Shown: in pieces, positions 1,206 to 48,100 of the stretch | Position numbering within the stretch: the first letter of the stretch is position 1 | Layout: every line of letters begins with the position of its first letter | DNA from: a virus | Lineage: Duplodnaviria; Caudoviricetes | IMG/VR virus record: IMGVR_UViG_3300020477_000013 | Coordinates: 96,001 to 160,000 of that record | Length of the DNA: 64,000 nt | Strand: one strand, 5' to 3' | Translations under genes and position numbers: made by a program | Notes under the pieces: generated by a model | Told to the model about the DNA's origin: nothing | The model's input: only the letters and a program-made list of their open reading frames with translations | Databases searched by the model: none

Positions 1206-1739
1206 TTGAAGAAAAAACAGCACATAATCATTTTTGACGGTCCTGATATGTGCGGAAAAACTGAGATGGCGATGGAATTATCGGCTGTTCTTGGCGTTCC
1301 GTATTTTAAAAATGAAAGTGAATGGGAATTTTTTGAAAAAGATCCAAGCTATTTTAGGAATGCGTTATCATATGGTGACACATTCTTTTATGCTTACTTA
1401 AGGCAAACAGGCGCATCTGTAATCTTAGACAGGTCATACCCATCAGAGTGGGTATATTCTAAGGTATTTTTACGAGTGACAAACGAAAAAGCGCTAAGCG
1501 AAGTAGATGCAATGGCTCATGGGATTCACACGAAGATAATAATTCCATACAGGAGTTCTTATGAAGGCTTAGAGGACCAGTTTTCATCCATAACGTCTGA
1601 CAAAATGCTAGAAATAGAGAACCTATATAGAAAATTCGCGGACTGGACTAAGTGTGATGTATTATTTCTGAATGTCGATTCAGAAGATTTAGATGATGAG
1701 ATATTTCAAATATTAAAATTCATAAACAAGGAAAATTAA
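1206..1739 (+). CDS. Thymidylate-kinase-family dNMP kinase (candidate modified-dCMP kinase)
   Basis: P-loop IIFDGPDMCGKT and LDRSYPSEWVY (DR motif); TTG start. Confidence 0.75.
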   Translation: MKKKQHIIIFDGPDMCGKTEMAMELSAVLGVPYFKNESEWEFFEKDPSYFRNALSYGDTFFYAYLRQTGASVILDRSYPSEWVYSKVFLRVTNEKALSEVDAMAHGIHTKIIIPYRSSYEGLEDQFSSITSDKMLEIENLYRKFADWTKCDVLFLNVDSEDLDDEIFQILKFINKEN

Positions 1740-2773
1740 TGAAGATAGGAATTAGCTATTGGGGATTTTGCGAGAAATTTCAAGACTCGACTGTCTCAAA
1801 TACCCCTGATGGACACAGGTATGGTAGGCCAGTTTTGGTCGATGCGCTACTTGAGAGCGGTCATGAAGTTTATGCGTTGCAAGACCAGCGGGAAGATGTT
1901 AAGTACGATGGTTTAGATTATAGGTTCGCCGGTGATGGGTATCCTGACTTGGATGTCCTATTCGTAGAGTGGCGGTGGCCGACATATAAGAATAGCGGCG
2001 AAAATAAATTTGAACCCGACCTAGACAGGCAAACGCAGCTGTTGGATTACTACCATGGAAATATACCCATCGTTTCGTGGGATACCGACCTGAAGATGAC
2101 AGCTGATGATGAAGTTCGCTGGCCGCTTATGACTATTGCTGATCCATCATTTGATCCTAAGCATATGACAAGGGATAGGTTACGGTTAACATTTTGGTCT
2201 GACTTTCGTCAGATAATAGACACGACCACCGGACCGGTCGAGTTTGGGTATGTGGGTAATAACTATGAGCGTGACAAGATGTTTATGGAGTATTATTCAA
2301 AGCCGTCGCTGGTATTACGGGACAATGGTGTCCAGACCAAAGTTCACGGTAACTGGCTACAGCGCTCCCCTGAGAGGTCTAGCCCTGAAGATTTGATACG
2401 GATGCATCCTAATATTGCGTTCGGCAAGCGGGTATCATTTCATGATTCGATGCATCTCTTAAATGAATTTATCTGTACTGTCCACATAACAAAGCCAGGG
2501 TATGCAGATGTAGGGTTTGCATCACCTAGATACCTGGAAAACATAGTCGTAGGTACACCTGCGCTGGTACCATATGAGTTTAAATATAGCTCCATACTAG
2601 GTGAAGAATGGGTTGTCCATGGTCATTCCGACGTCATCGAGAAAGTTAGGTATTTAAAGAATCTTGGTTGCGATGAAAGAGATGATGTCGTCCGGCATCA
2701 GATGTACAATCTTTTAAAGCACCATAATTTTAGTGTTAATAATGTTGTTGAGTTTATTGAATCGCTGGTTTAA
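1739..2773 (+). CDS. GT-B glycosyltransferase resembling T4 DNA beta-glucosyltransferase
   Basis: MKIGI start; C-half GYVGNNYERDKMF...HGN...FGKRV...HITKPGY...SPRYLENIVVGTPALV follows my recollection of the T4 BGT C-domain; similar length. Confidence 0.6.
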   Translation: MKIGISYWGFCEKFQDSTVSNTPDGHRYGRPVLVDALLESGHEVYALQDQREDVKYDGLDYRFAGDGYPDLDVLFVEWRWPTYKNSGENKFEPDLDRQTQLLDYYHGNIPIVSWDTDLKMTADDEVRWPLMTIADPSFDPKHMTRDRLRLTFWSDFRQIIDTTTGPVEFGYVGNNYERDKMFMEYYSKPSLVLRDNGVQTKVHGNWLQRSPERSSPEDLIRMHPNIAFGKRVSFHDSMHLLNEFICTVHITKPGYADVGFASPRYLENIVVGTPALVPYEFKYSSILGEEWVVHGHSDVIEKVRYLKNLGCDERDDVVRHQMYNLLKHHNFSVNNVVEFIESLV

Positions 2774-2784
2774 GGAGAATCATT

Positions 2785-3777
2785 GTGACGCGTGTTCTTA
2801 TAACAGGGGTGGCTGGCCTCTTGGGTGCAAATTTTTCTAGGTATCTATTAGACAAGGGATATGAGGTTATAGGAATTGATAACCTGTCCGGAGGTTTCGA
2901 GGATAGTGTGGATCCTCGGGTTCGGTTCTATCCTGTAGATTTACAGGACTTGGATGTCGTAAATAACATTTTTCGTATCGAGAAACCTGACTATGTGTAT
3001 CATTTTGCCGCATATGCAGCCGAGGGATTAAGTCCATTTATCAGGAATTTTAATTACGTTAATAATGTCTTATGCTCCGTAAACGTTATTAATTCATGCA
3101 TCAAGTACGATGTGAAAAAACTAGTCTTTACATCTTCAATGGCGGTGTATGGATCTGGTTCACCACCCTTTAGGGAAGACCAACGCCCTTCCCCTGAAGA
3201 CCCATATGGTATAGCAAAATATGCTGTAGAGATGGATCTTGCATTAGCATACGAGCAGTTTGGGCTAGAATATACAATCATCCGCCCCCATAATGTGATA
3301 GGGATATACCAAAATATCTGGGATCGCTATAGAAATGTTATAGGTATCTGGATCAGAAAAGCTCTTAATGGTGAGGCCTTGACGATATTCGGGGACGGCA
3401 CTCAGGTTAGAGCATTTTCAGATATCAGGTTTTATATGGAGCCATTTGAGAAGGCTATGTATGATTATCATGGGGAATCCTTCAATATAGGGGCAGACAA
3501 GTACTATACAATTAATGATGCTTCAAAAATTGTCCAGGATGTTGCTTCTGGATTTGGCTATGACGTAGGTAGGGAATGGCTAGAGGCTAGAAATGAAGTA
3601 CATACTGCATACTGCGACCACAGTAAGGCAAAAGAGTTACTAGGGTTTGAGGACAACACAGATTTTGAGTTAATGGTGAGAACGATGTTTAAATGGGCAA
3701 TGTCGCAGCCTGATAGGGATGTCAAGTATAAGGATTATGAGATAGATAAGGGAATTTACAGTTTCTGGAAAAAGTAG
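2785..3777 (+). CDS. NAD-dependent epimerase/dehydratase (extended SDR)
   Basis: TGVAGLLG Rossmann motif, FTSSMAVYG, YGIAK (YxxxK); GTG start. Confidence 0.92.
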   Translation: MTRVLITGVAGLLGANFSRYLLDKGYEVIGIDNLSGGFEDSVDPRVRFYPVDLQDLDVVNNIFRIEKPDYVYHFAAYAAEGLSPFIRNFNYVNNVLCSVNVINSCIKYDVKKLVFTSSMAVYGSGSPPFREDQRPSPEDPYGIAKYAVEMDLALAYEQFGLEYTIIRPHNVIGIYQNIWDRYRNVIGIWIRKALNGEALTIFGDGTQVRAFSDIRFYMEPFEKAMYDYHGESFNIGADKYYTINDASKIVQDVASGFGYDVGREWLEARNEVHTAYCDHSKAKELLGFEDNTDFELMVRTMFKWAMSQPDRDVKYKDYEIDKGIYSFWKK

Positions 3778-3788
3778 GGGTATGGTTA

Positions 3789-4790
3789 ATGAACGTATAT
3801 GATAACTTTACACAATGCTATTTAGGCTTAATAGACCAGGTATATAACACACCTGATTTTATCTCTAGTCCTCGTGGGCAATTGGTGAAAGAGAAATTAG
3901 CAGTTAAGTTCCAGATTAATGATCCTAGGAGCAGAATTCCTTATACGGCTGCACGAAAATTTTCGTTGCACTATATGGTTGCTGAGTTACTTTGGTATTT
4001 GTCTGGAGAAGATTCTACGGAGTGGATATCAAATTACTCGTCTTTCTGGAGGAAGATATCCGACAACGGAAAGACTGCTAATTCTGCATATGGGGCCCGA
4101 ATTTTTAAAACACATGACAGAATTGCAGGTGGCCAATTAGTTCAGTGGGATTATGTGGTCAACGAACTCCGTAAAGACAACGACTCAAGACGAGCCGTTA
4201 TACATATACGTTCGCCATGGGATTCTACGCATGCGAAGCTTGATGTACCCTGTACACTCGCACTGCAGTTTTTTATTCGAGATAATAAGTTGCATCTTGT
4301 TGTTAATATGCGATCCTCTGATATAATACTAGGCATTGCTTACGACATTCCTGCATTTACTTTTATGCAAGAGCTTATGGCTGTGCAGCTTGGTGTGGGC
4401 TTGGGGACATATACACATATTAGTAATTCATTACACATTTACGAGAGGCATTTCAATATGGCAGAAGAAATTTTGTTGCCCGAGAACCAGACTGAGTCAT
4501 TGATGTGTCAGATATCTCGGGGCTCGATGCCCCCCCTCACGACAAACTTGCCTCCTATTCGTGAGCTATACCTATTTGAGGGTGCCATACGTAACTGTAG
4601 TACGGCTGAAGAAATTTATGAGTGCTTAGAAGAACTAGAAACTATTGATATTCATATAGATCATATAGACTACTGGCTTGATTGGGGAAAGGTTTTAGCA
4701 TCACATCGCCTTAAGAAGCTTGGGTTTCTAAATGAGTCAAATGATATGTTAAACTCTACTTCTTATGTTGGTTACCATTTACTATCTTAA
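3789..4790 (+). CDS. Thymidylate synthase homolog, probably dCMP hydroxymethylase/hydroxylase type
   Basis: ELLWY, SAYG, SRRAV, DVPC155T, MRSSD178IILGIAYD186; Asp at the position of E. coli TS Asn177. Confidence 0.8.
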   Translation: MNVYDNFTQCYLGLIDQVYNTPDFISSPRGQLVKEKLAVKFQINDPRSRIPYTAARKFSLHYMVAELLWYLSGEDSTEWISNYSSFWRKISDNGKTANSAYGARIFKTHDRIAGGQLVQWDYVVNELRKDNDSRRAVIHIRSPWDSTHAKLDVPCTLALQFFIRDNKLHLVVNMRSSDIILGIAYDIPAFTFMQELMAVQLGVGLGTYTHISNSLHIYERHFNMAEEILLPENQTESLMCQISRGSMPPLTTNLPPIRELYLFEGAIRNCSTAEEIYECLEELETIDIHIDHIDYWLDWGKVLASHRLKKLGFLNESNDMLNSTSYVGYHLLS

Positions 4791-4805
4791 ATTTACGGAG
4801 AAATT

Positions 4806-5819
4806 ATGAATAGTTGTTTAGTTACAGGAGGCTGCGGATTTATAGGCAGCGCACTGGTAAGTAAGTTAGTCGAGGCAGGATGGAAGGTTGATGTAGTCGA
4901 CGACCTATCAGGCGGAGATATTACAGCACTTGGTGACTTGCAGAAGAGGGTTATTCACGTCGACATGGTTCCTCTTTTTGAACATAGGCATGAGCCGTCC
5001 AGGCTTGACAGCGAAGTGCTGGTAATCACAGGCGATTTTTCTCATGAAAATATCTTTACAAGAATAAAAGATAAGAGATATGATTATGTTTTTCATCTAG
5101 CTGCTAGGCCAAGGGTAGCATACTCGGTAGAGGACCCTATAACAACGATGGAACACAACCTGTTTAAGACGACTGCACTTTTTCATGCATGCGTAAAGTC
5201 AGTTAAGAGGGTCATTTTTTCAAGTTCATCTTCTGTATTTGGCAGGGTAGAAGAATTCCCTACCCCCGAAGAGTACCCCAAGAACCCCTGTTCACCATAC
5301 GCATTACAGAAGTATTCATGTGAGCAATTTGCATCTCTTTTTGTTGAGCTATATGGAATTGATATAGTCGGGCTGAGGTATTTTAATGTATACGGTCCTG
5401 GCCAGCTAGGTGACTCTCCGTATTCGACTGTTGTCTCTGCGTGGTGTTATGCGATCCAGCAAGATGCTGAACTAAGGCTCGATGGTGATGGTACACAGTC
5501 TAGGGACTTTACATATATCGATGATGTTGTTTCCGCAAACATGCTCGCGGCAACATCAACCAATGAGATTGCGGGCCACATGTTTAACATAGGAAAAGGA
5601 AAGTACCATTCTCTTAACGAGATCCTAGGGTTATTTAAAGACAGATACGGTGACCTTCCACTTAGGCATGCACCAACGCGCGCTGGCGATGTGCACAAAA
5701 CCCATGCAGATGTTAGCAATGCCGGGTCATTATTGGGTTATAATCCTCAAACTAGCATGGAGGATGGCTTGAATAAGACATTTGCCTGGTGGGAATCTTT
5801 AAGTGAGGTGGATGATTAA
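4806..5819 (+). CDS. NAD-dependent NDP-sugar 4-epimerase-like SDR
   Basis: TGGCGFIG, HLAARPRVAYSVEDP, SSSSSVFG, YALQK, LRYFNVYGPGQ, SRDFTYIDDVV. Confidence 0.92.
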   Translation: MNSCLVTGGCGFIGSALVSKLVEAGWKVDVVDDLSGGDITALGDLQKRVIHVDMVPLFEHRHEPSRLDSEVLVITGDFSHENIFTRIKDKRYDYVFHLAARPRVAYSVEDPITTMEHNLFKTTALFHACVKSVKRVIFSSSSSVFGRVEEFPTPEEYPKNPCSPYALQKYSCEQFASLFVELYGIDIVGLRYFNVYGPGQLGDSPYSTVVSAWCYAIQQDAELRLDGDGTQSRDFTYIDDVVSANMLAATSTNEIAGHMFNIGKGKYHSLNEILGLFKDRYGDLPLRHAPTRAGDVHKTHADVSNAGSLLGYNPQTSMEDGLNKTFAWWESLSEVDD

Positions 5820-6398
5820 ATGAGAGATCCTGAATTTATTATCTTTACGGGGCCCATGTTCGGTTCTAAGACTACCCGCATGCTGGCCACATTGGAAAGA
5901 TATACATACCAAAATAAGGATGTACTTGCCTTTAAGCCAAAAATGGATGACAGGTATAGCGAGAGTGAGATTTGCACCCACTCAGGCTTGAAATTTCCTG
6001 CCTATGTCGTGGCTACCGGCGCTGAGATTTTGGAGCGTGTCGAAACTATAGCTCCGGACATTGTTGCTGTCGATGAGGCATTTATGATTGACGGGTGTGC
6101 AGAAGCGGTGTTGGAGCTGTTTAGGGCTGGAAAGACAATCGTTATTTCATCCCTACAATTATCAGCTAGCGGGAATGTCTTTGTGGAGGTTAGGGATATG
6201 ATGCCATGGGCTACAAAGATTGAAGTTTGTCCAGCGGTCTGCACTGTTACCGGTAGGGATGCGTACTATACCCACAGAAAAGTAGAGGGATTAGGCGAGA
6301 TAGTTATCGGGGGTATAGATTTATATGAGCCTAGGAGTTGGGAACACCATCCACTTATGAACCACAGGAATATTCATGCCCATCCCAAGCCCCAATGA
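5820..6398 (+). CDS. tdk: Thymidine kinase
   Basis: TGPMFGSKT P-loop, FKPKMDDRY, VDEAF, C-terminal GGxDxYEPR segment. Confidence 0.9.
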   Translation: MRDPEFIIFTGPMFGSKTTRMLATLERYTYQNKDVLAFKPKMDDRYSESEICTHSGLKFPAYVVATGAEILERVETIAPDIVAVDEAFMIDGCAEAVLELFRAGKTIVISSLQLSASGNVFVEVRDMMPWATKIEVCPAVCTVTGRDAYYTHRKVEGLGEIVIGGIDLYEPRSWEHHPLMNHRNIHAHPKPQ

Positions 6399-7209
6399 GA
6401 TAGATACCGTCATTTATCATGCAAACTGTGCAGATGGCTTTGGCGCAGCATATGTTGCATGGAGGCATCTAGGCGCTAATGCTTCTTATTTGCCGTGGCA
6501 CCATGGGGATCCCCCTCCTGATGTGGAGGGTAAAAATGTTCTCATTGTAGATTTTTCATTTTCTAAATCAGATATTATCAAGATGAATTCCTGCGCGAAT
6601 TCGCTGGTTGTTCTAGATCATCACATTTCCGCAAAAAAGAATCTCAAAGGTTTGTCCTATGCAATAATAGACGTTACGAGGTCTGGCGCAATGATGGCAT
6701 GGGATTTTTTCTATGAAAACTGTGCTGCACCCCTATTAATTCAATATATTCAAGATCGTGATTTGTGGCGCTGGTCCCTTGAGGAATCTAGGGAATTTTC
6801 GGCGGGGCTTAATACAGTACCTTTTGATTTTAACGCATATGCTAGCCTTGAAGGTGAAGCTGCAGTTGCTGAGTTAATTGAGAAAGGCAAGGCAATCCTC
6901 GAGCACATTGATGCAGAGGTCTATTATGCCTGTAAGGGCTCCACAAGAAAGAGGTTCTTGGGATATGATGTTGCTATTGTAAATTCACGAAACTATAAAT
7001 CAGAGATTGGCTCTCGACTGTCTAAAGAATGTGATTTTGCGCTAATATGGCATTGTGACCAGTACTCAAGCATAAGCATAAGTCTCAGGGCCCAGGAGAA
7101 TTCGGTTGATGTTTCCGAAGTAGCATCAAAATTTGGTGGCGGTGGCCATAGTTGCGCCGCAGGATTCAGGGTCGATGATTTATCGTTTTTAAGTATGCTT
7201 TTAGATTGA
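6376..7209 (+). CDS. DHH/DHHA1 family phosphoesterase
   Basis: YHANCADG, VDFS, LDHH, DRDLW, GGGGHSCAAG. Confidence 0.9.
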   Translation: MPIPSPNEIDTVIYHANCADGFGAAYVAWRHLGANASYLPWHHGDPPPDVEGKNVLIVDFSFSKSDIIKMNSCANSLVVLDHHISAKKNLKGLSYAIIDVTRSGAMMAWDFFYENCAAPLLIQYIQDRDLWRWSLEESREFSAGLNTVPFDFNAYASLEGEAAVAELIEKGKAILEHIDAEVYYACKGSTRKRFLGYDVAIVNSRNYKSEIGSRLSKECDFALIWHCDQYSSISISLRAQENSVDVSEVASKFGGGGHSCAAGFRVDDLSFLSMLLD

Positions 7210-7280: not shown

Positions 7281-10200
7281 ATGACCGATAGAATCTCTTG
7301 GCTTCCTGCTTGCAATGCAACATTAACGAAAAAATTAGCTGCTGAAAGAAAGCAGCTTTTAGAGTCGTATGCCCTGAAGAAAGGCAGCGTTCGCCTGCTT
7401 GTAGAGGGTACATCTTATTATGATGCCCTGAATCGTAAGATAGAGATAGCACAATTAAATGAAGTCATATATCCCTATATGCTATTTTCTAGGGCAACAG
7501 GAAATGATTTTTATTCTAGGGTGGTCCGTAAAACTATAGCAGAATTGCGGCGCAGGGGCCTCGTCGATGAGGCCTCACCATTATTGCAAGAGGGTTTCTG
7601 GGATTCAGTTCAATCTGGAATCGGTAATTTTGCTGGTGGTGTTGACAGCTTTCTTAAGAAGATAAAATTAAAGAAAGAGCCGAAAGGGTGGGAAGAAGCC
7701 CAACGGATATTTCAGAAGATAGCCGAGAAAGAGGGTCACCAGGTCGTAAAAGACCTGGTTAAAGCAATAGACAGTGAGGTAAAATCGCTAGAGTCTGGCC
7801 TGGGTTCGAAGCCAAAAGATTCCAACTTTCCTGTCAACAAAAATAGAAATGCTTTCTTCTCAGGTGTTAATACAATCGCGACGACATATGATTCGATCGT
7901 CGCGGCTACTAAAAAAGATCCTGGCGATGATGGCTATATGCCAGTAGATATTGCTAATGAGATAATTGAGCAGCTGCGGATTGTTACCCAAAAATATATG
8001 GCTGATACTGAGAGAGACAAGGGTGGTATGTATGCGTCTTTCGGCGGCGGTGATGCTAAACAAGAGGCTGAGGCCGCTAATGAGACCGAGTATCATGAAG
8101 AGGATGTTCTAGCAGAGCAGGATGATGAAGGAGCTGAGGGGGCAGGGGATAAAAAGAAAGAGGAAGAAGAAAAGATTGATCCCGATGCAGAGGCTGAAAA
8201 AATGATGAGGGGTCAAAGTTCTCAAGTCTTTAATCGAATGACTAGCCTTAAGGCACCTCTCATCATTGCAGCTATGGGTGCAGCTATGGGGGCCCTAGGG
8301 TGGATTGCATACCAGCCATGGTTTCATGATTGGGTGACGGATTTTCTAGGTATTGCAAAGACTGATACTGAAACGATTAGTAACAGTTGGGAATCTACTC
8401 TTAAGGATTCAATGGACAGGGCTAACCCTGAAATGACTGAGCTCGGTCAGATAGAGGCCGGTGGCGGAGGCCTCGCGAAGCAGGTCTCCCGACTTCTCGG
8501 GCTAGGTGACAGTGAGAACCTTTTAGGGAAAGATGCTTCTCTTGAAGATCTCAAGAACGCTGCTTTAAAAGTGGGAGATGGTGATCTAGACAAGGGGCTC
8601 AGGGGTATTGCCGGCCTCACTGAAGGACGTGGGAATCCAGAGGAGGCATTCAAGTGGATGAAAGGTGCCATTGAGGATCCACAAATGGTCGGTGCTGAAA
8701 ATATTAGTGGCGAAGGCAGTCTTTGGAAGCTGTGGCTCGGTGGTACTGAACGATCCGGTGCTCCTGGTCGACAAATATTAAGTAAAGCAGGTAAGGCCTT
8801 TGCGGATTCGGTGACCGTCGATAAAGGCGCCGGTCCACAGATGCCTATCGACGCCGTCAGGAAGCTGGAAAAAACTAAAGAATTCTGGACGACAATGCCG
8901 AAAGGGATGTTTAGCGTCGGTGTTGGTAACAAGTTGCAGGGCTGGATTATTAAGAAAGCAGCCAAAGCTGTCGCGAAGCAGGCAGCAAAGACAGTTGTAG
9001 CTTCAGCAACTGTTACTACTACCTCATCCGGAGCGCTAGGCGTTTCTACTATGCTAGCATCCGCAGCCCCAGTTTTGGCCGGTATCGGCGTCTCTGCTGT
9101 CGCTGCAGGTGCTGCGCTAGCTGCCATCCGCCACAGAGCAAAGACAAAGTCAAGGATGGGTACATTAAATTCCTTACTTCAGACCCTAAATTTATTAGCA
9201 CCCCAGCCAGTTCCAGACGTCAAGCCTGATGAGGGTGAGAAATCGAAGGTTACTATAGTTTTAAATAATCCCGCACCGGCTGCCACCGGTGGCAAGGTTA
9301 AGAAAGAGAGTCTTATGCATGCTCTAGGGTTGCTAAACGAAAGGACTGACGTCACGATTACTGGTCTGGGCGGTAATGATGAGCTCAAGAAGACTGGGGG
9401 GGTCGCTAAATTTTCTCTGGCCAGCGTTCCCTTAGATATAACCCCCAGCGTGACTGATCTCATGTCAATACCATTTATAGAAAAGGGAATTAATGATTTT
9501 CTCCCTGATTTAAACTTGGCCGACCCGAATGTAGAAATTGAGATTATTGATAAGAGGAAGGCAGAAGAAATTCCTGAAAAGCCACCGCAAAAAGAGGCTC
9601 CGCCAGTGCCTGTTGTTCCTGCAGAGATAGCGAAGGGGAATAATGCGGTAGTTGTTTTTGATACTGACGGCGCGAAGGTCTGGCGTATTCTCAAGAAAAA
9701 AACATTTCAGAAATATGCCCAAGATGCCAAGCGGTCAAAGGACAAAGATGCTCCAGAGTTTGCAGACAGGTTTTCACGATATGACAGTATTCTTGCAAAA
9801 TTACGTGCAGACGGCGTATTTGTCAATTCAGATGTTTTAGAGGCTGAGCTTTCAAAAATTTCTTCTGGACAAGATGGCGATGCTTATCGTGCGACTTACA
9901 CAAGGACGAGGAAAGACAAGAAGACCGGTAAAGAAAAGAAGAGAAAATCTACCACTGGAGGATTTACTTCTGCTGGAGAAGTTAAGAGTATCGGTGATAT
10001 ACGAAAGAATATCAAAGGTGCTCCGGGTTCACGCCCACCCCGAAATGCAGGCGAAATGACAATAATATACTTGATCGGGTCTAATACATTGCAGGCCCTT
10101 CAGGGTGCCGGCTTGGATGATAAGAAGTCTCGGCAGGTTGCTATGAAGGCTATATCTGATTGGGCATCTGCCGGGAAACGCCCGAGTATAGCAGATCTAG

Positions 10201-10403
10201 GCGTTGACGATAAGGCAGCCAAGGTTTTAAAGAAGGCTAGCTTGGCAGAGGCTTTAGGCATGCAACAAGCACACAGGTACGCAATAGTTGATGTAACCCC
10301 TAAATTATTTAAACGAATGATTCGTGAAATAAGGGATGCCTCAAATAATTCAGGCGGCTCAATATCCCGAGACCGCCTCCTTACTTTAGCTGGTGTAAAG
10401 TAG
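7281..10403 (+). CDS. Large (1040 aa) hypothetical protein, possible virion/ejection protein
   Basis: Long ORF with two hydrophobic Ala/Gly-rich segments; ends RDRLLTLAGVK. Confidence 0.75.
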   Translation: MTDRISWLPACNATLTKKLAAERKQLLESYALKKGSVRLLVEGTSYYDALNRKIEIAQLNEVIYPYMLFSRATGNDFYSRVVRKTIAELRRRGLVDEASPLLQEGFWDSVQSGIGNFAGGVDSFLKKIKLKKEPKGWEEAQRIFQKIAEKEGHQVVKDLVKAIDSEVKSLESGLGSKPKDSNFPVNKNRNAFFSGVNTIATTYDSIVAATKKDPGDDGYMPVDIANEIIEQLRIVTQKYMADTERDKGGMYASFGGGDAKQEAEAANETEYHEEDVLAEQDDEGAEGAGDKKKEEEEKIDPDAEAEKMMRGQSSQVFNRMTSLKAPLIIAAMGAAMGALGWIAYQPWFHDWVTDFLGIAKTDTETISNSWESTLKDSMDRANPEMTELGQIEAGGGGLAKQVSRLLGLGDSENLLGKDASLEDLKNAALKVGDGDLDKGLRGIAGLTEGRGNPEEAFKWMKGAIEDPQMVGAENISGEGSLWKLWLGGTERSGAPGRQILSKAGKAFADSVTVDKGAGPQMPIDAVRKLEKTKEFWTTMPKGMFSVGVGNKLQGWIIKKAAKAVAKQAAKTVVASATVTTTSSGALGVSTMLASAAPVLAGIGVSAVAAGAALAAIRHRAKTKSRMGTLNSLLQTLNLLAPQPVPDVKPDEGEKSKVTIVLNNPAPAATGGKVKKESLMHALGLLNERTDVTITGLGGNDELKKTGGVAKFSLASVPLDITPSVTDLMSIPFIEKGINDFLPDLNLADPNVEIEIIDKRKAEEIPEKPPQKEAPPVPVVPAEIAKGNNAVVVFDTDGAKVWRILKKKTFQKYAQDAKRSKDKDAPEFADRFSRYDSILAKLRADGVFVNSDVLEAELSKISSGQDGDAYRATYTRTRKDKKTGKEKKRKSTTGGFTSAGEVKSIGDIRKNIKGAPGSRPPRNAGEMTIIYLIGSNTLQALQGAGLDDKKSRQVAMKAISDWASAGKRPSIADLGVDDKAAKVLKKASLAEALGMQQAHRYAIVDVTPKLFKRMIREIRDASNNSGGSISRDRLLTLAGVK

Positions 10404-10474: not shown

Positions 10475-11002
10475 GTGATTAGAAAGTTGTTACATACCTT
10501 AGGTGACATGATAACCAGCGCGCATCCTCACTTAGAGAAGGGCGCTGTGAGGCTATCATTGGAGAGATTTTTGTCAAATTTACTTAGATCAGACAGGCCG
10601 GATTGGGATGACGTGTGGATGGATTTTGCATATTCCATAGCACGTCGGTCTTATGACCCCAGACATCAAGTGGGTGCAGTTGTTGTCACAGGTGATAATA
10701 CACAGGTGCTAGCTATTGGTTATAATGGTAATTATTCCGGTGGCCCAAATGAGGTAGAGTCTGATGTTCCTGGAGAGTCGGGTATGATACATGCTGAGAT
10801 TAATGCATTGCTGAAGATGGATTATAACACACCAAAAACGAAGAAGCTATATGTAACGCTGTCTCCATGTAAGATGTGTGCGAAGTCAATCATTAATGCA
10901 GGGGTAGATGAAGTCATCTATGATACCGAATATAGGGATACATCTGGATTGGAAATTTTAAAATCTTCTCACATTAAGGTAAGGGCCTTCGGTGGTAAGT
11001 GA
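10475..11002 (+). CDS. dCMP deaminase
   Basis: HAEINAL and PCKMCAK zinc motifs, VGAVVV, GYNG. Confidence 0.9.
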   Translation: MIRKLLHTLGDMITSAHPHLEKGAVRLSLERFLSNLLRSDRPDWDDVWMDFAYSIARRSYDPRHQVGAVVVTGDNTQVLAIGYNGNYSGGPNEVESDVPGESGMIHAEINALLKMDYNTPKTKKLYVTLSPCKMCAKSIINAGVDEVIYDTEYRDTSGLEILKSSHIKVRAFGGK

Positions 11003-24451: not shown

Positions 24452-24790
24452 ATGAAAATTACAAAGAAAGAACTAAGAAGAATTATCAAGGAAGAAAAAC
24501 AGGGGCTTTTAAGAGAGGCATGGATGGCTAACTCTGGAGGTTCATTTAGCCCGATGGCGTCACGTGCTGATTCTGAGTTTGCTGAGATGATTAGGGAAGC
24601 CGGCCCAGGCAGCGCTGTAGGTGACTACCCAAGAGACGAAAGGGACTGGGTCGAGATGTTAGGACAATTAATTGACCAAGATCTGACGTCTCGTGGTGTA
24701 TGGTATGAAGATGAAGGTGCAGCAGTGATGAGGGCACTTGAGAGCCTCAGGCTCCAGATTAGTGACAGTATGAGAGGCCCCACACGATGA
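24452..24790 (+). CDS. Leader-family protein MKITKKELRRIIKEE
   Basis: Canonical leader outside the main array, then GLLRE. Confidence 0.8.
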   Translation: MKITKKELRRIIKEEKQGLLREAWMANSGGSFSPMASRADSEFAEMIREAGPGSAVGDYPRDERDWVEMLGQLIDQDLTSRGVWYEDEGAAVMRALESLRLQISDSMRGPTR

Positions 24791-25413
24791 AGATAGGTCT
24801 TGTACCCATCTCAGCCAAGCCTTATCATGCCGGTCATCATGCACTAGTCTCTGCAGCCTCAGCTCAGAATGATAAAGTGCTTTTATTCGTCTCAACATCC
24901 GACCGGAAAAGAAAGGGTGAATTTCCTATCTTGGGAAGTGATATGGCGGATATATGGGTGAGATACCTAGAGCCTATTATGCCAGGAAATGTAGAGATCG
25001 TCTATGGGGGATCTCCAGTTCAGAAAGTCTACGGAACTTTAGAGAACGCATGCATGGGTGGCACTAAAAATGTGTATACTGTATATTCGGACCCTGAAGA
25101 TACAGCTGCCAATTACCCTCCTGCAAATAGAGAAAAATACTTTCCTGGCCTATGTGATATAGGAACAGTGAAATTCGCAGCCGAAGAGGACCCTGGGATG
25201 TTTACACGAGGTGTAGGAACGCCTAATGTAAGTGGAACAAAGATTAGGGCAGCTTTAGCTGCAGGTGATATCTCTACATTTTCAGCAGGTATGCCTGCCG
25301 GCGTTGACGCTGAAGCAATTTTTGCCGATCTCGGTGGACAGCCTAGACTAAGTGTTGGAAGTACTAACGAAGATTTATTGAGATCTTATGTTGGCGCGAT
25401 CATTCGTGGTTAG
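24787..25413 (+). CDS. HIGH-superfamily nucleotidyltransferase (cytidylyltransferase/NMNAT-like)
   Basis: KPYHAGH and SGTKIR motifs; C-term NEDLLRSYVGAII. Confidence 0.7.
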   Translation: MKIGLVPISAKPYHAGHHALVSAASAQNDKVLLFVSTSDRKRKGEFPILGSDMADIWVRYLEPIMPGNVEIVYGGSPVQKVYGTLENACMGGTKNVYTVYSDPEDTAANYPPANREKYFPGLCDIGTVKFAAEEDPGMFTRGVGTPNVSGTKIRAALAAGDISTFSAGMPAGVDAEAIFADLGGQPRLSVGSTNEDLLRSYVGAIIRG

Positions 25414-30363: not shown

Positions 30364-32222
<1,859 letters not shown>

Positions 32223-35278: not shown

Positions 35279-37150
35279 ATGAGTAAAATTATAGGGATTG
35301 ACTTGGGTACGACGAATTCATGCGTCGCTGTTGTTGAGGGCGGGGAGCCCAAAGTCATTGTTAACGAAGAAGGGAACAGGACGACACCTTCCGTCGTTGC
35401 ATTCGGTGATAATGACACCCTGGTGGGTGTAACGGCCCGCCGCCAGGCTGTTGTAAATCCCGGTAAGACTATCTACTCTGTCAAGAGGTTCATTGGGTCT
35501 AAGCTTAAGGAGGTTGAGTCCGCAGCGGGAAAGGTTGCGTACAACGTTGTATCTGCATCCGGAGGAGATGCACATGTAAAGGTTGGTGATAAGACATATT
35601 CACCTCCTGAGATTAGTGCAAAAGTTCTCCAGAAGCTTAAAAGATCTGCCGAGAAGTACTTGGGTGAGTCCGTTTCTGACGCGGTTATCACTGTGCCTGC
35701 ATATTTTAATGATAGCCAGCGTCAGGCAACAAAGGATGCAGGAAAGATCGCAGGCCTTAATGTTAAGCGGATTATTAATGAGCCTACTGCGGCCGCTTTG
35801 GCATACGGCCTTAATACCACAAGCGAACAACTAATTGCTGTTTATGACTTCGGCGGAGGGACATTTGACGTTTCTGTGCTAGAGGTAGGGAATGAAGTCG
35901 TCGAAGTCTTGTCAACGAGTGGAGACACTTACTTGGGGGGTGATAATGTAGATGAAGTGATCATCGATTACCTCACTGGTGTGTTTAAGCAAGAATCCGG
36001 TATTGATGTGAGTGATGATAGCATGGCTATGCAGAGAGTCCGGGAGGCCGCCGAGAAGGCCAAGATTGAACTCAGTTCTGCACAGCAGGCTGAGGTGAAC
36101 TTGCCATTCCTAACTGCAGATGCGACTGGACCCAAGCATATGGTTCACACACTTACGAGGTCAAAGTTCGAACAACTTGTTGAGCCTGTTGTCGAGAAGA
36201 CGTTTAAGTCTTGTAAGACGGCCCTAAAAGACGCCGGCAGGTCTCACTCCGAGATTGATCAAGTTATCCTCGTCGGGGGCTCTACTAGGATTCCTCTTGT
36301 TGTTAAAAAGGTAGAAGAATTTTTTGGGAAGGCTCCTCACCAAGGCGTGAATCCGGATGAGGTTGTCGCGCTCGGTGCAGCCGTTCAAGGTGGGGTACTT
36401 TCCGGAGACGTAAAAGATGTACTTCTTTTGGACGTTACGCCACTTAGTTTGGGTATTGAGACAATGGGCGCGGTTACAACTAAGTTGATCTCTAAGAACA
36501 CGACCGTCCCTACGAAGAAGTCAGAGGTTTTTTCAACCGCGTCTGATGGCCAATCGCAGGTGGAAATTCATGTCTTGCAGGGCGAGCGTGAGATGGCATC
36601 AGACAACCGAACGCTGGGTAGGTTTACCCTGGACGGAATTCCACCGGCTCCTCGTGGTGTCCCTCAAATTGAAGTCACATTTGATCTAGATGCAGATGGT
36701 GTCCTCAAGGTTTCTGCGGTGGATAAAGCAACAGGAAAGGACCAGGGAATCACAATTCAGGACTCATCCGGCCTTTCGTCGGAAGAGATTGAGAGAATGG
36801 TGAGGGAGGCTGCAAAATTCGAGGCGGAAGACCAGAAGAAGAGGGCAGTTGTTGAGTCAAGAAACAAGCTTGATTCTACGATCCACAGCGCTAACAAGAT
36901 GAAGGTTACAATGAAAGAGCAACTTTCTGAAGATGATATTATCGCAGTGGATTCAGCTATCAGCGAGGCTGAAAAGTATCTCACATCAGACATTACGTCA
37001 GACATTGATGGAGCTGTGGGTGCACTCACGTCAGTTTTGCAGGCACTCACAAAGTCTGTGTATGAAAATGCCACACCTCCCGAGAATTCTGGTGTGAATG
37101 ATACTGATACTCCAGCTGACGATGATATTATTGACGCGGAAGTTGCGTGA
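35279..37150 (+). CDS. dnaK: Chaperone DnaK
   Basis: [48 protein letters not shown]. Confidence 0.98.
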
Positions 37151-37681: not shown

Positions 37682-37758
37682 GCGCCCGTAGCTCAGCTGG
37701 ATAGAGCATCGGCCTTCTAAGCCGAGGGTCACAGGTTCGAATCCTGTCGGGCGTGCCA
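37682..37758 (+). tRNA. tRNA-Arg (anticodon TCT)
   Basis: Full cloverleaf GCGCCCG/CGGGCGT, loop CTTCTAA, TTCGAAT, encoded CCA. Confidence 0.95.
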
Positions 37759-45824: not shown

Positions 45825-45831
45825 TTAACAT

Positions 45832-45905
45832 GTTCTCGTAGCTCAGCTGGATAGAGCGACCGCCTCCTAAGCGGTAGGTCGCAGGTTCGAATCCTGCCGG
45901 GAACG
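45832..45905 (+). tRNA. tRNA-Arg (anticodon CCT), CCA not encoded
   Basis: GTTCTCG/CGGGAAC acceptor stem, loop CTCCTAA, TTCGAAT. Confidence 0.93.
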
Positions 45906-45906
45906 A

Positions 45907-48022: not shown

Positions 48023-48100
48023 GGGCCCCTAGCTCAATCAGGTTAGAGCAAGCGGCTCATAACCGCTAGGTTCAGGGTTCAAGTCCCTGGGGGCCCACCA
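48023..48100 (+). tRNA. tRNA with CAT anticodon, most likely tRNA-Ile2
   Basis: GGGCCCC/GGGGCCC stem with C4:G69 and C5:G68, loop CTCATAA, A73, CCA; no initiator features; adjacent to tilS. Confidence 0.85.

Follow-up and report, generated by a model that had tools for sequence, protein, structure and literature searches.

Deoxycytidylate (dCMP) 5-hydroxymethylase of the phage T4 gp42 type (EC 2.1.2.8) converts dCMP and 5,10-methylene-tetrahydrofolate (methylene-THF) into 5-hydroxymethyl-dCMP (5hm-dCMP) and THF, and both the T4-type pathway and the Asn-to-Asp switch from uracil to cytosine recognition are textbook knowledge. Here we compare this and related enzymes with P0001, a protein of thymidylate synthase (TS) fold encoded in a 64,000-nucleotide (nt) stretch of viral DNA (the window), which covers bases 96001–160000 of the 201,585-bp IMG/VR virus record IMGVR_UViG_3300020477_000013 (completeness estimate 73%). 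Based on its active-site residues, its similarity to the cytidylate (CMP) 5-hydroxymethylase MilA and its gene context, we consider it likely that P0001 is a folate-dependent dCMP 5-hydroxymethylase with the role of T4 gp42 and the architecture of MilA, and the phage probably replaces and glycosylates the cytosine in its own DNA.

Several residue rules have been published for this family, and family positions are given below in the numbering of E. coli ThyA unless otherwise indicated. The structure of MilA indicated that Asp at the position of Asn177 accompanies cytosine substrates (MilA, BcmA and T4 CH), and that the CMP preference of MilA stems from Ala176 and Lys133 (MilA numbering), where deoxynucleotide enzymes have Ser and Arg, such that the A176S/K133R double mutant switches to dCMP (PMC5175136). 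From the ternary complex of the T4 enzyme (T4dCH), the signature of a hydroxymethylase was defined as an acidic residue (Asp or Glu; D145 in T4) at the third position N-terminal of the catalytic Cys together with a Ser/Thr-x-Tyr motif (S94 and Y96); TS has Leu at the position of D145, and T4dCH D145N yields no product (PMC6400193). Asn at the position of Asp169 is the mark of those phage TS homologues (RB69 gp48, DLP3 gp80 and others) whose product, formed with flavin and O2, is 5-hydroxy-dCMP, and nine further homologues with D169N were all producers of 5-hydroxydeoxycytidine (PMC13326640; NAR 2026). Further, Asp177 by itself gives TS the activity of a dCMP methylase (literature cited by PMC8670742), and metavirome homologues of TS that have Asp177 and another residue in place of His147 were statistically associated with cytosine-modified contigs (MetaGPA, eLife 2021; PMC8670742).

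Active site, conservation and fold of P0001

The P0001 gene and the residues compared with these rules are located in the window as follows.

3789–4790, + strand: P0001, TS-fold enzyme, predicted dCMP 5-hydroxymethylase; open frame of 333 amino acids (aa); PF00303, E 4e-33; catalytic core at about residues 1–234 and C-terminal helical extension at residues 235–333, a MilA-like architecture
4083–4091, + strand: S99-A100-Y101, equivalent to S94-x-Y96 of T4dCH, the other half of the hydroxymethylase signature (PMC6400193)
4188–4193, + strand: R134-R135, phosphate-binding Arg from the other subunit, equivalent to E. coli R126-R127; MilA has Lys133 at the first position
4242–4244, + strand: D152, three residues N-terminal of the Cys, equivalent to E. 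coli L143 and T4 D145; proposed water activation (PMC6400193, PMC13326640)
4251–4253, + strand: C155 (TGT), catalytic nucleophile, equivalent to E. coli C146 and T4 C148
4311–4322, + strand: R175-S176-S177-D178, with S176 equivalent to E. coli S167 and D178 to E. coli D169 and T4 D171 (pterin contact)
4344–4346, + strand: D186 (GAC), equivalent to E. coli N177, T4 gp42 D179 and MilA D186; determinant of cytosine versus uracil

In MAFFT alignments with E. coli ThyA, T4 gp42 and RB69 gp48, residues C155, R175, D178 and D186 share columns with ThyA C146, R166, D169 and N177, and therefore the constant offset of 9 on which the original prediction relied is correct, with the codons of C155, R175-S-S-D178 and D186 lying exactly where it placed them. 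The same alignments equate T156 with H147, W87 with W80, and H216 and Y218 with H207 and Y209. That the Asp at the position of Asn177 denotes an enzyme acting on a cytosine nucleotide rather than a TS is likewise borne out by the alignment, by the literature (PMC5175136, PMC8670742, PMC13326640, PMC6400193) and by the presence of a separate ThyX in the genome. The best sequence match in the PDB is the CMP hydroxymethylase MilA (5jnh; E 3e-46), with true thymidylate synthases at E 1e-22. Given the E-values for PF00303 and MilA and the invariance of D186, neither the match to the TS family nor the alignment of D186 is a matter of chance.

At the ten diagnostic positions P0001 reads EWRDCSDDHY, the same as T4 gp42, whereas E. 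coli ThyA has L143 and N177, the dCMP methylase of phage Xp12 has N143, and the deoxyuridylate (dUMP) hydroxymethylase of SP10 has N177. The residues that contact substrate or cofactor or form the water network in T4dCH are identical in P0001 in 19 of 25 cases, while RB69 gp48 departs at W82, D171, G175 and Y218. Both the folate-site Asp (D178) and Trp (W87; E. coli W80, T4 W82) are retained. The original prediction had also held that sequence alone could not distinguish hydroxymethylase, methylase and hydroxylase chemistry. This caveat was too cautious, because D152, S99-x-Y101, D178, S176 and R134 match the published rules for hydroxymethylases and deoxynucleotide enzymes, and the signature residues all point toward hydroxymethylation.

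These residues are strongly conserved. D152, C155, S176, D178 and D186 are invariant in a set of 120 close homologues (120/120), and S99 and Y101 are invariant in an alignment of homologues. For a more distant set, 1.84 billion cluster representatives (50% identity) were searched exhaustively, and 148 of the best 150 matches were long enough for alignment. Positions 143/146/167/169/177 read DCSDD in 142 of the 148, DCADD in five and PCSDD in one, and Asn at position 169 was found in none of them.

An AlphaFold2 model of P0001, predicted from a 45-sequence alignment with a mean predicted local distance difference test score (pLDDT) of 93.4, was compared with known structures by Foldseek and VIA. 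MilA ranks first in both, over the full length (residues 1–333) and including the helical C-terminal extension, with template modelling (TM) scores of 0.81/0.84, a Z score of 36.8, 304 residues aligned at a root-mean-square deviation of 2.0 Å, and 34% identity. By contrast, AfhB, the dCMP hydroxylase of HY126 (9iqc), matches the core only (Z 23.4), and canonical thymidylate synthases score at Z of about 22. As modelled, P0001 is of MilA architecture with the deoxy-type ribose pocket of T4dCH.

In the reaction that we propose, C155 would attack C6 of dCMP, and D186 would read and protonate the N3/N4 face of the cytosine. Methylene-THF, its pterin held via D178 and W87, would give its one-carbon unit to C5, and a water molecule placed by D152, S99 and Y101 would then add to the exocyclic methylene, in place of hydride transfer, to yield 5hm-dCMP.

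Partner genes and related phages

The genes at 1206–7209, including that of P0001, lie directly 3' of dnaE and are tightly spaced (intergenic distances of −23 to +15 nt), and a Shine-Dalgarno-like sequence accompanies each of them. These genes and others that may belong to the same pathway are listed below, together with a ThyX gene that is encoded elsewhere, upstream in the same genome.

9–1154, + strand: C-terminal part of a DnaE-type DNA polymerase III alpha (PF14579, phrog_405; full gene at genome 93555–97154)
1206–1739, + strand: P-loop nucleotide kinase, thymidylate-kinase-like, 177 aa, candidate kinase for modified dCMP (phrog_761, E 2e-12; RB69 gp45 by BLASTP, E 5e-7)
1739–2773, + strand: glycosyltransferase of GT-B fold, 344 aa, candidate DNA 5-hydroxymethylcytosine (5hmC) glycosyltransferase (PF13524, E 4e-7)
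2785–3777, + strand: SDR1, NAD-dependent protein like 4-epimerases of nucleoside diphosphate (NDP)-sugars, 330 aa (PF01370, E 3e-48; best PDB match 4zrm, a uridine diphosphate (UDP)-glucose 4-epimerase, E 1e-46)
4806–5819, + strand: SDR2, NAD-dependent protein like 4-epimerases of UDP-hexose or UDP-N-acetylhexosamine (HexNAc), 337 aa (PF01370, E 5e-51; PDB 6dnt, 4zrm, WbgU, WbpP)
5820–6398, + strand: thymidine kinase (PF00265, E 6e-29)
6376–7209, + strand: DHH/DHHA1 phosphoesterase (phrog_4771, E 1e-80)
10475–11002, + strand: dCMP deaminase (PF00383, E 6e-21; phrog_174, E 4e-46)
genome 91632–92084: nucleoside triphosphate (NTP) pyrophosphatase, all-alpha, 150 aa, gp56-like (phrog_12184, E 3e-17; weak PF08761)

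For the glycosyltransferase, structure comparison alone is informative. Its AlphaFold2 model (pLDDT 94.9) has the T4 beta-glucosyltransferase (1qkj) at rank 2 in Foldseek (E 4e-11, TM 0.60), whereas BLASTP against the same T4 enzyme gives E 0.013, BLASTP against the gp47 half of RB69 gives no match, and a PDB sequence search likewise gives none. Both SDR proteins have Ser-rich catalytic motifs (TSSMAVYG and YxxxK in SDR1; SSSSSVFG and Y165xxxK in SDR2) and are without the Asp-Glu pair of 4,6-dehydratases. The C-terminal half of the NTP pyrophosphatase aligns with the T4 gp56 deoxycytidine triphosphatase (dCTPase) through the common terminal NGY (E 2e-6).

As predicted from these assignments, the adjacent kinase together with host enzymes would convert 5hm-dCMP to its triphosphate (5hmdCTP), the gp56-like pyrophosphatase would deplete dCTP, the DnaE-type replicase would incorporate 5hmC, and the GT-B transferase would glycosylate 5hmC in the DNA. 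A search of the available record, which is about 73% complete so that absence is unproven, found neither a UDP-galactopyranose mutase nor a sugar-1-phosphate nucleotidyltransferase, and the two phage epimerases therefore presumably act on a host UDP-sugar to give the donor. Since the genome has its own ThyX, dTMP synthesis is accounted for, and it would proceed by a separate route through ThyX, thymidine kinase and dCMP deaminase. Taken together, and by analogy, the gene set is that of T4 logic, i.e., dCTP depletion, dCMP hydroxymethylation, phosphorylation, incorporation, glycosylation and a separate dTMP route.

A scan for promoters and terminators was overall no richer than shuffled controls; a sigma-70-like TTGAAC-17-TATAAT at 1146–1174, within the 51 nt that separate dnaE from the kinase gene, is at most suggestive of an operon promoter.

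Homologues of P0001 are abundant in metagenomes (about 1,700 at E <= 1e-10), and an identical protein is present on a second contig of 288 kb. The closest full-length homologues (53–79% identity) are largely marine (e.g., Tara) and lie on contigs of 196–308 kb. In three relatives with long contigs (53–66% identity), the kinase and the TS homologue are kept 3' of dnaE, with the kinase 42–50% identical and beside the TS homologue in all three. The same glycosyltransferase is present in two of them (61% and 42% identity), while the remaining one has an unrelated 440-aa protein in that slot (L006:8678–10000), and SDR2 orthologues are likewise found in two of the three.

The other sugar genes differ. 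One relative has a single epimerase only, another (264-kb contig, L015:3760–6424) has an epimerase, a DAO-type FAD oxidase and a short-chain dehydrogenase, and another (JGI 3300008954, 196-kb contig, L016:9032–10156) has a UDP-galactopyranose mutase (PF03275) and an epimerase. Because the sugar-tailoring genes vary beside a conserved kinase and TS homologue, the comparison suggests that related phages may carry different sugars on the same base. It is conceivable, although we put this forward tentatively, that the modified base is an undescribed glycosyl-5hmC whose sugar is not glucose but, for instance, a hexose of the galactose type or a HexNAc, which the two 4-epimerases would derive from host UDP-sugars, and that this lineage fixes the hydroxymethylase and kinase after dnaE while swapping the sugar genes and sometimes the transferase, giving rise to a family of glycodiverse hydroxymethylcytosines. 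A galactose-type sugar is at most a reasonable guess.

The best homologues of P0001 in cultured phages, about 39% identical, are gp319 of Bacillus phage G and proteins of the Enterococcus VPE25 group. The phage G protein (348 aa) has the same D/C/S/D/D signature, and the region that encodes it (NC_023719: 228463–239173) also has a dCMP deaminase, a thymidylate kinase and a gene annotated as an alpha-glucosyltransferase. Because of this signature and these neighbours, Bacillus phage G may also have glycosylated 5hmC.

With 12 kb of the window as a nucleotide query, no match was found among 50,697 phage records, and DnaE is at most about 28% identical to that of any deposited phage. By these searches, no characterised close relative of this phage exists. 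As a possible pointer to a cultured relative, the DnaK-like gene at 35279–37150 was uninformative, its matches being mostly host-like DnaK in dubious records. Neither thymidylate synthase nor DnaE is mentioned in a report of a new lineage of aquatic jumbo phages (PMC12619734), which therefore provides no link to this phage.

Other genes of the record were noted in passing. Nearly all of its genes share one strand; among the few on the minus strand is that of a haemolysin-III family membrane protein (genome 92081–92740; PF03006, E 1e-33), located between the NTP pyrophosphatase and dnaE. A 1040-aa protein encoded at 7281–10403, between the DHH phosphoesterase and the dCMP deaminase, has no match in Pfam, PHROG or NCBIfam and is missing from that position in the three relatives examined. 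At genome 90249–91476, about 4.5–5.8 kb before the window, there are an HhH-GPD glycosylase fragment and a complete Fpg/Nei-type DNA glycosylase (PF01149, PF06831, PF21025), and both genes are kept in the relative L006; such base-excision enzymes are unexplained in a phage with predicted fully modified cytosine. Further along the window are a 208-aa protein (24787–25413) with weak matches to cytidylyltransferases and nicotinamide mononucleotide (NMN) adenylyltransferases (phrog_395, E 8e-5; phrog_3462, E 2e-5), GroEL (30582–32222; phrog_5725, E 1e-151), the DnaK/Hsp70 homologue mentioned above, which is about 57–60% identical to bacterial DnaK, and three tRNA genes (Arg-TCT at 37682–37758, Arg-CCT at 45831–45906 and Met-CAT at 48023–48100).

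Alternative chemistries

Several points weigh against assigning P0001 to dCMP hydroxymethylation for DNA. By BLASTP, its overall identity to T4 gp42 (28%, E 5e-16) and to RB69 gp48 (25%, E 7e-18) is about equal. A maximum-likelihood tree of 62 TS-family sequences gave good support for the P0001 clade (100/98), but its deep branches were not resolved, with T4, RB69, E. coli and Xp12 on very long branches, and the tree was not used to assign function. The functional call therefore falls to the active-site residues, the similarity to MilA and the gene context. The residue rules are themselves empirical and drawn from few characterised enzymes. As for the context, the order of kinase, glycosyltransferase and TS homologue also occurs in the 5-hydroxycytosine (5hoC) systems of RB69, DLP3 and RL38J1, the acceptor of the glycosyltransferase could be something other than DNA, and the NTP pyrophosphatase is a gp56-like candidate whose substrate assignment is predicted only. 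Further, BLASTP found no T4 gp1-type deoxynucleoside monophosphate kinase in the record, which is about 73% complete, and likewise no gp43 or UvsX.

The alternative that survives best, though we regard it as quite unlikely, is a flavin- and O2-dependent 5-hydroxy-dCMP synthase like RB69 gp48, DLP3 gp80 and HY126 AfhB, in which case the sugar would be ether-linked directly to 5hoC. The known hydroxylases also carry N177D and L143E/D, and structure searches with them likewise place MilA at the top; among the structural matches of P0001 itself, the HY126 hydroxylase is second only to MilA. In addition, the kinase is weakly homologous to RB69 gp45, and the gene order matches RB69 gp45–48, DLP3 gp78–80 and RL38J1 gp214–216. 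Since that order is shared, synteny alone cannot separate 5hmC from 5hoC, and the discrimination depends on empirical rules, namely the D169 diagnostic and the retained folate-site residues. In P0001, D169N, the sole reported diagnostic, is absent, with D178 in its place, and this Asp is invariant in the 120 close homologues and the 148 aligned clusters. RB69 gp48 carries Asn at position 169, Ile at 80 and Phe at 209, whereas W87, G182 and Y218 of P0001 are as in T4dCH and not the Ile, Val and Phe found there in RB69. MilA is also far closer to the model than the hydroxylase is (Z 36.8 versus 23.4), and hydroxylase structures are not among the 60 PDB sequence matches listed for P0001.

It is very unlikely that P0001 is instead a dCMP 5-methyltransferase as in phage Xp12, with the phage building 5-methylcytosine DNA. 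Such an activity might be expected from the finding that Asp177 suffices to turn TS into a dCMP methylase, and the Xp12 enzyme also has D169 and D177. Yet at positions 143/146/167/169/177 it reads N-C-S-D-D, versus D-C-S-D-D in P0001; that is, where Xp12 combines Asp177 with a non-acidic residue 143 (Asn; Leu in ThyA and in engineered TS), P0001 has Asp152. Because D145N abolishes 5hm-dCMP formation by T4dCH (PMC6400193), Asp at this position is specific to hydroxymethylation. The S99-x-Y101 motif is present as well, and the adjacent conserved glycosyltransferase and the sugar epimerases presuppose a hydroxyl group as acceptor.

That P0001 hydroxymethylates the ribonucleotide CMP, as MilA and BcmA do, and serves a nucleoside metabolite or an RNA-related pathway rather than DNA is highly improbable. 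No characterised protein is closer to P0001 than MilA, whether in sequence or in structure and with the C-terminal helical domain included, but its ribose pair Ala176/Lys133 is replaced in P0001 by the deoxy-type S176/R134, the same exchange that switches the MilA double mutant to dCMP (PMC5175136), and Ala at position 176 occurs in just five of the 148 aligned clusters. Moreover, the P0001 gene lies in a phage between replicase, thymidine kinase and dCMP deaminase, and a scan of ten neighbouring proteins gave matches solely to families of nucleotide metabolism, sugars and replication.

An ordinary or relaxed thymidylate synthase still making dTMP is scarcely credible, for although Pfam and NCBIfam name P0001 thymidylate synthase and its homologues are annotated likewise in their sources, N177, H147 and L143 are replaced by D186, T156 and D152, all NCBIfam thymidylate synthase equivalogs score far below their cut-offs (the best 105 bits versus a cut-off of 327), and the genome has ThyX.

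Comparison with described systems

If P0001 is a dCMP 5-hydroxymethylase, widespread uncultured marine giant phages would replace cytosine with glycosylated 5hmC by means of a MilA-shaped enzyme, not the compact T4 one. This would alter the behaviour of such DNA toward restriction-based defence and CRISPR targeting as well as in library preparation and marine virome sequencing, and would provide natural cassettes of hydroxymethylase, kinase, transferase and epimerase for differently glycosylated 5hmC. It would also provide a worked example of how residues tell hydroxymethylase, hydroxylase and methylase apart.

T4 gp42 (T4dCH; PDB 1b49, 1b5e, 6a9b, 6l18) resembles P0001 in predicted reaction and pathway logic, in all ten diagnostic positions and in 19 of 25 contact residues, and it too is accompanied by a gp56-type pyrophosphatase, a kinase, a GT-B transferase and a dCMP deaminase. 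By contrast, core identity is only about 28%, and T4dCH is without the C-terminal helical extension of about 100 aa. The present phage also differs from T4 in having a DnaE-type replicase rather than gp43, ThyX rather than td, a thymidylate-kinase-like rather than a gp1-like kinase, and its own sugar epimerases. MilA of Streptomyces rimofaciens (PDB 5jnh, 5b6d, 5b6e, 5jp9) is the closest match in both solved structure and sequence (33–34% identity), and its residue numbering even coincides with that of P0001 (C155, D186, H216, Y218); unlike P0001, it prefers CMP via Ala176/Lys133 and acts in antibiotic biosynthesis, not in phage DNA metabolism.

The 5-hydroxy-dCMP synthases RB69 gp48, DLP3 gp80 and HY126 AfhB (PDB 9iqc, 9iqu) share with P0001 the TS fold, Asp177, an acidic residue 143, the order of kinase, glycosyltransferase and TS homologue, and glycosylated cytosine in DNA, which for the P0001 phage is predicted. 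However, they have Asn169, are without Trp80, comprise about 238 aa with no C-terminal domain and use flavin and O2, whereas P0001 keeps Asp178 and Trp87. Finally, the MetaGPA homologues (PMC8670742) also come from environmental phages and have Asp177 with a replaced His147, as P0001 has D186 and T156, but they are paired with, e.g., carbamoyltransferases, whereas P0001 is paired with a GT-B transferase and sugar 4-epimerases in a marine phage of about 200–290 kb. The Asn-to-Asp switch, T4 gp42 and the occurrence of Asp177 TS homologues in cytosine-modified metavirome contigs (PMC8670742) are already established, and the more interesting point of this locus lies in its sugar and in the variability of the sugar cassette.

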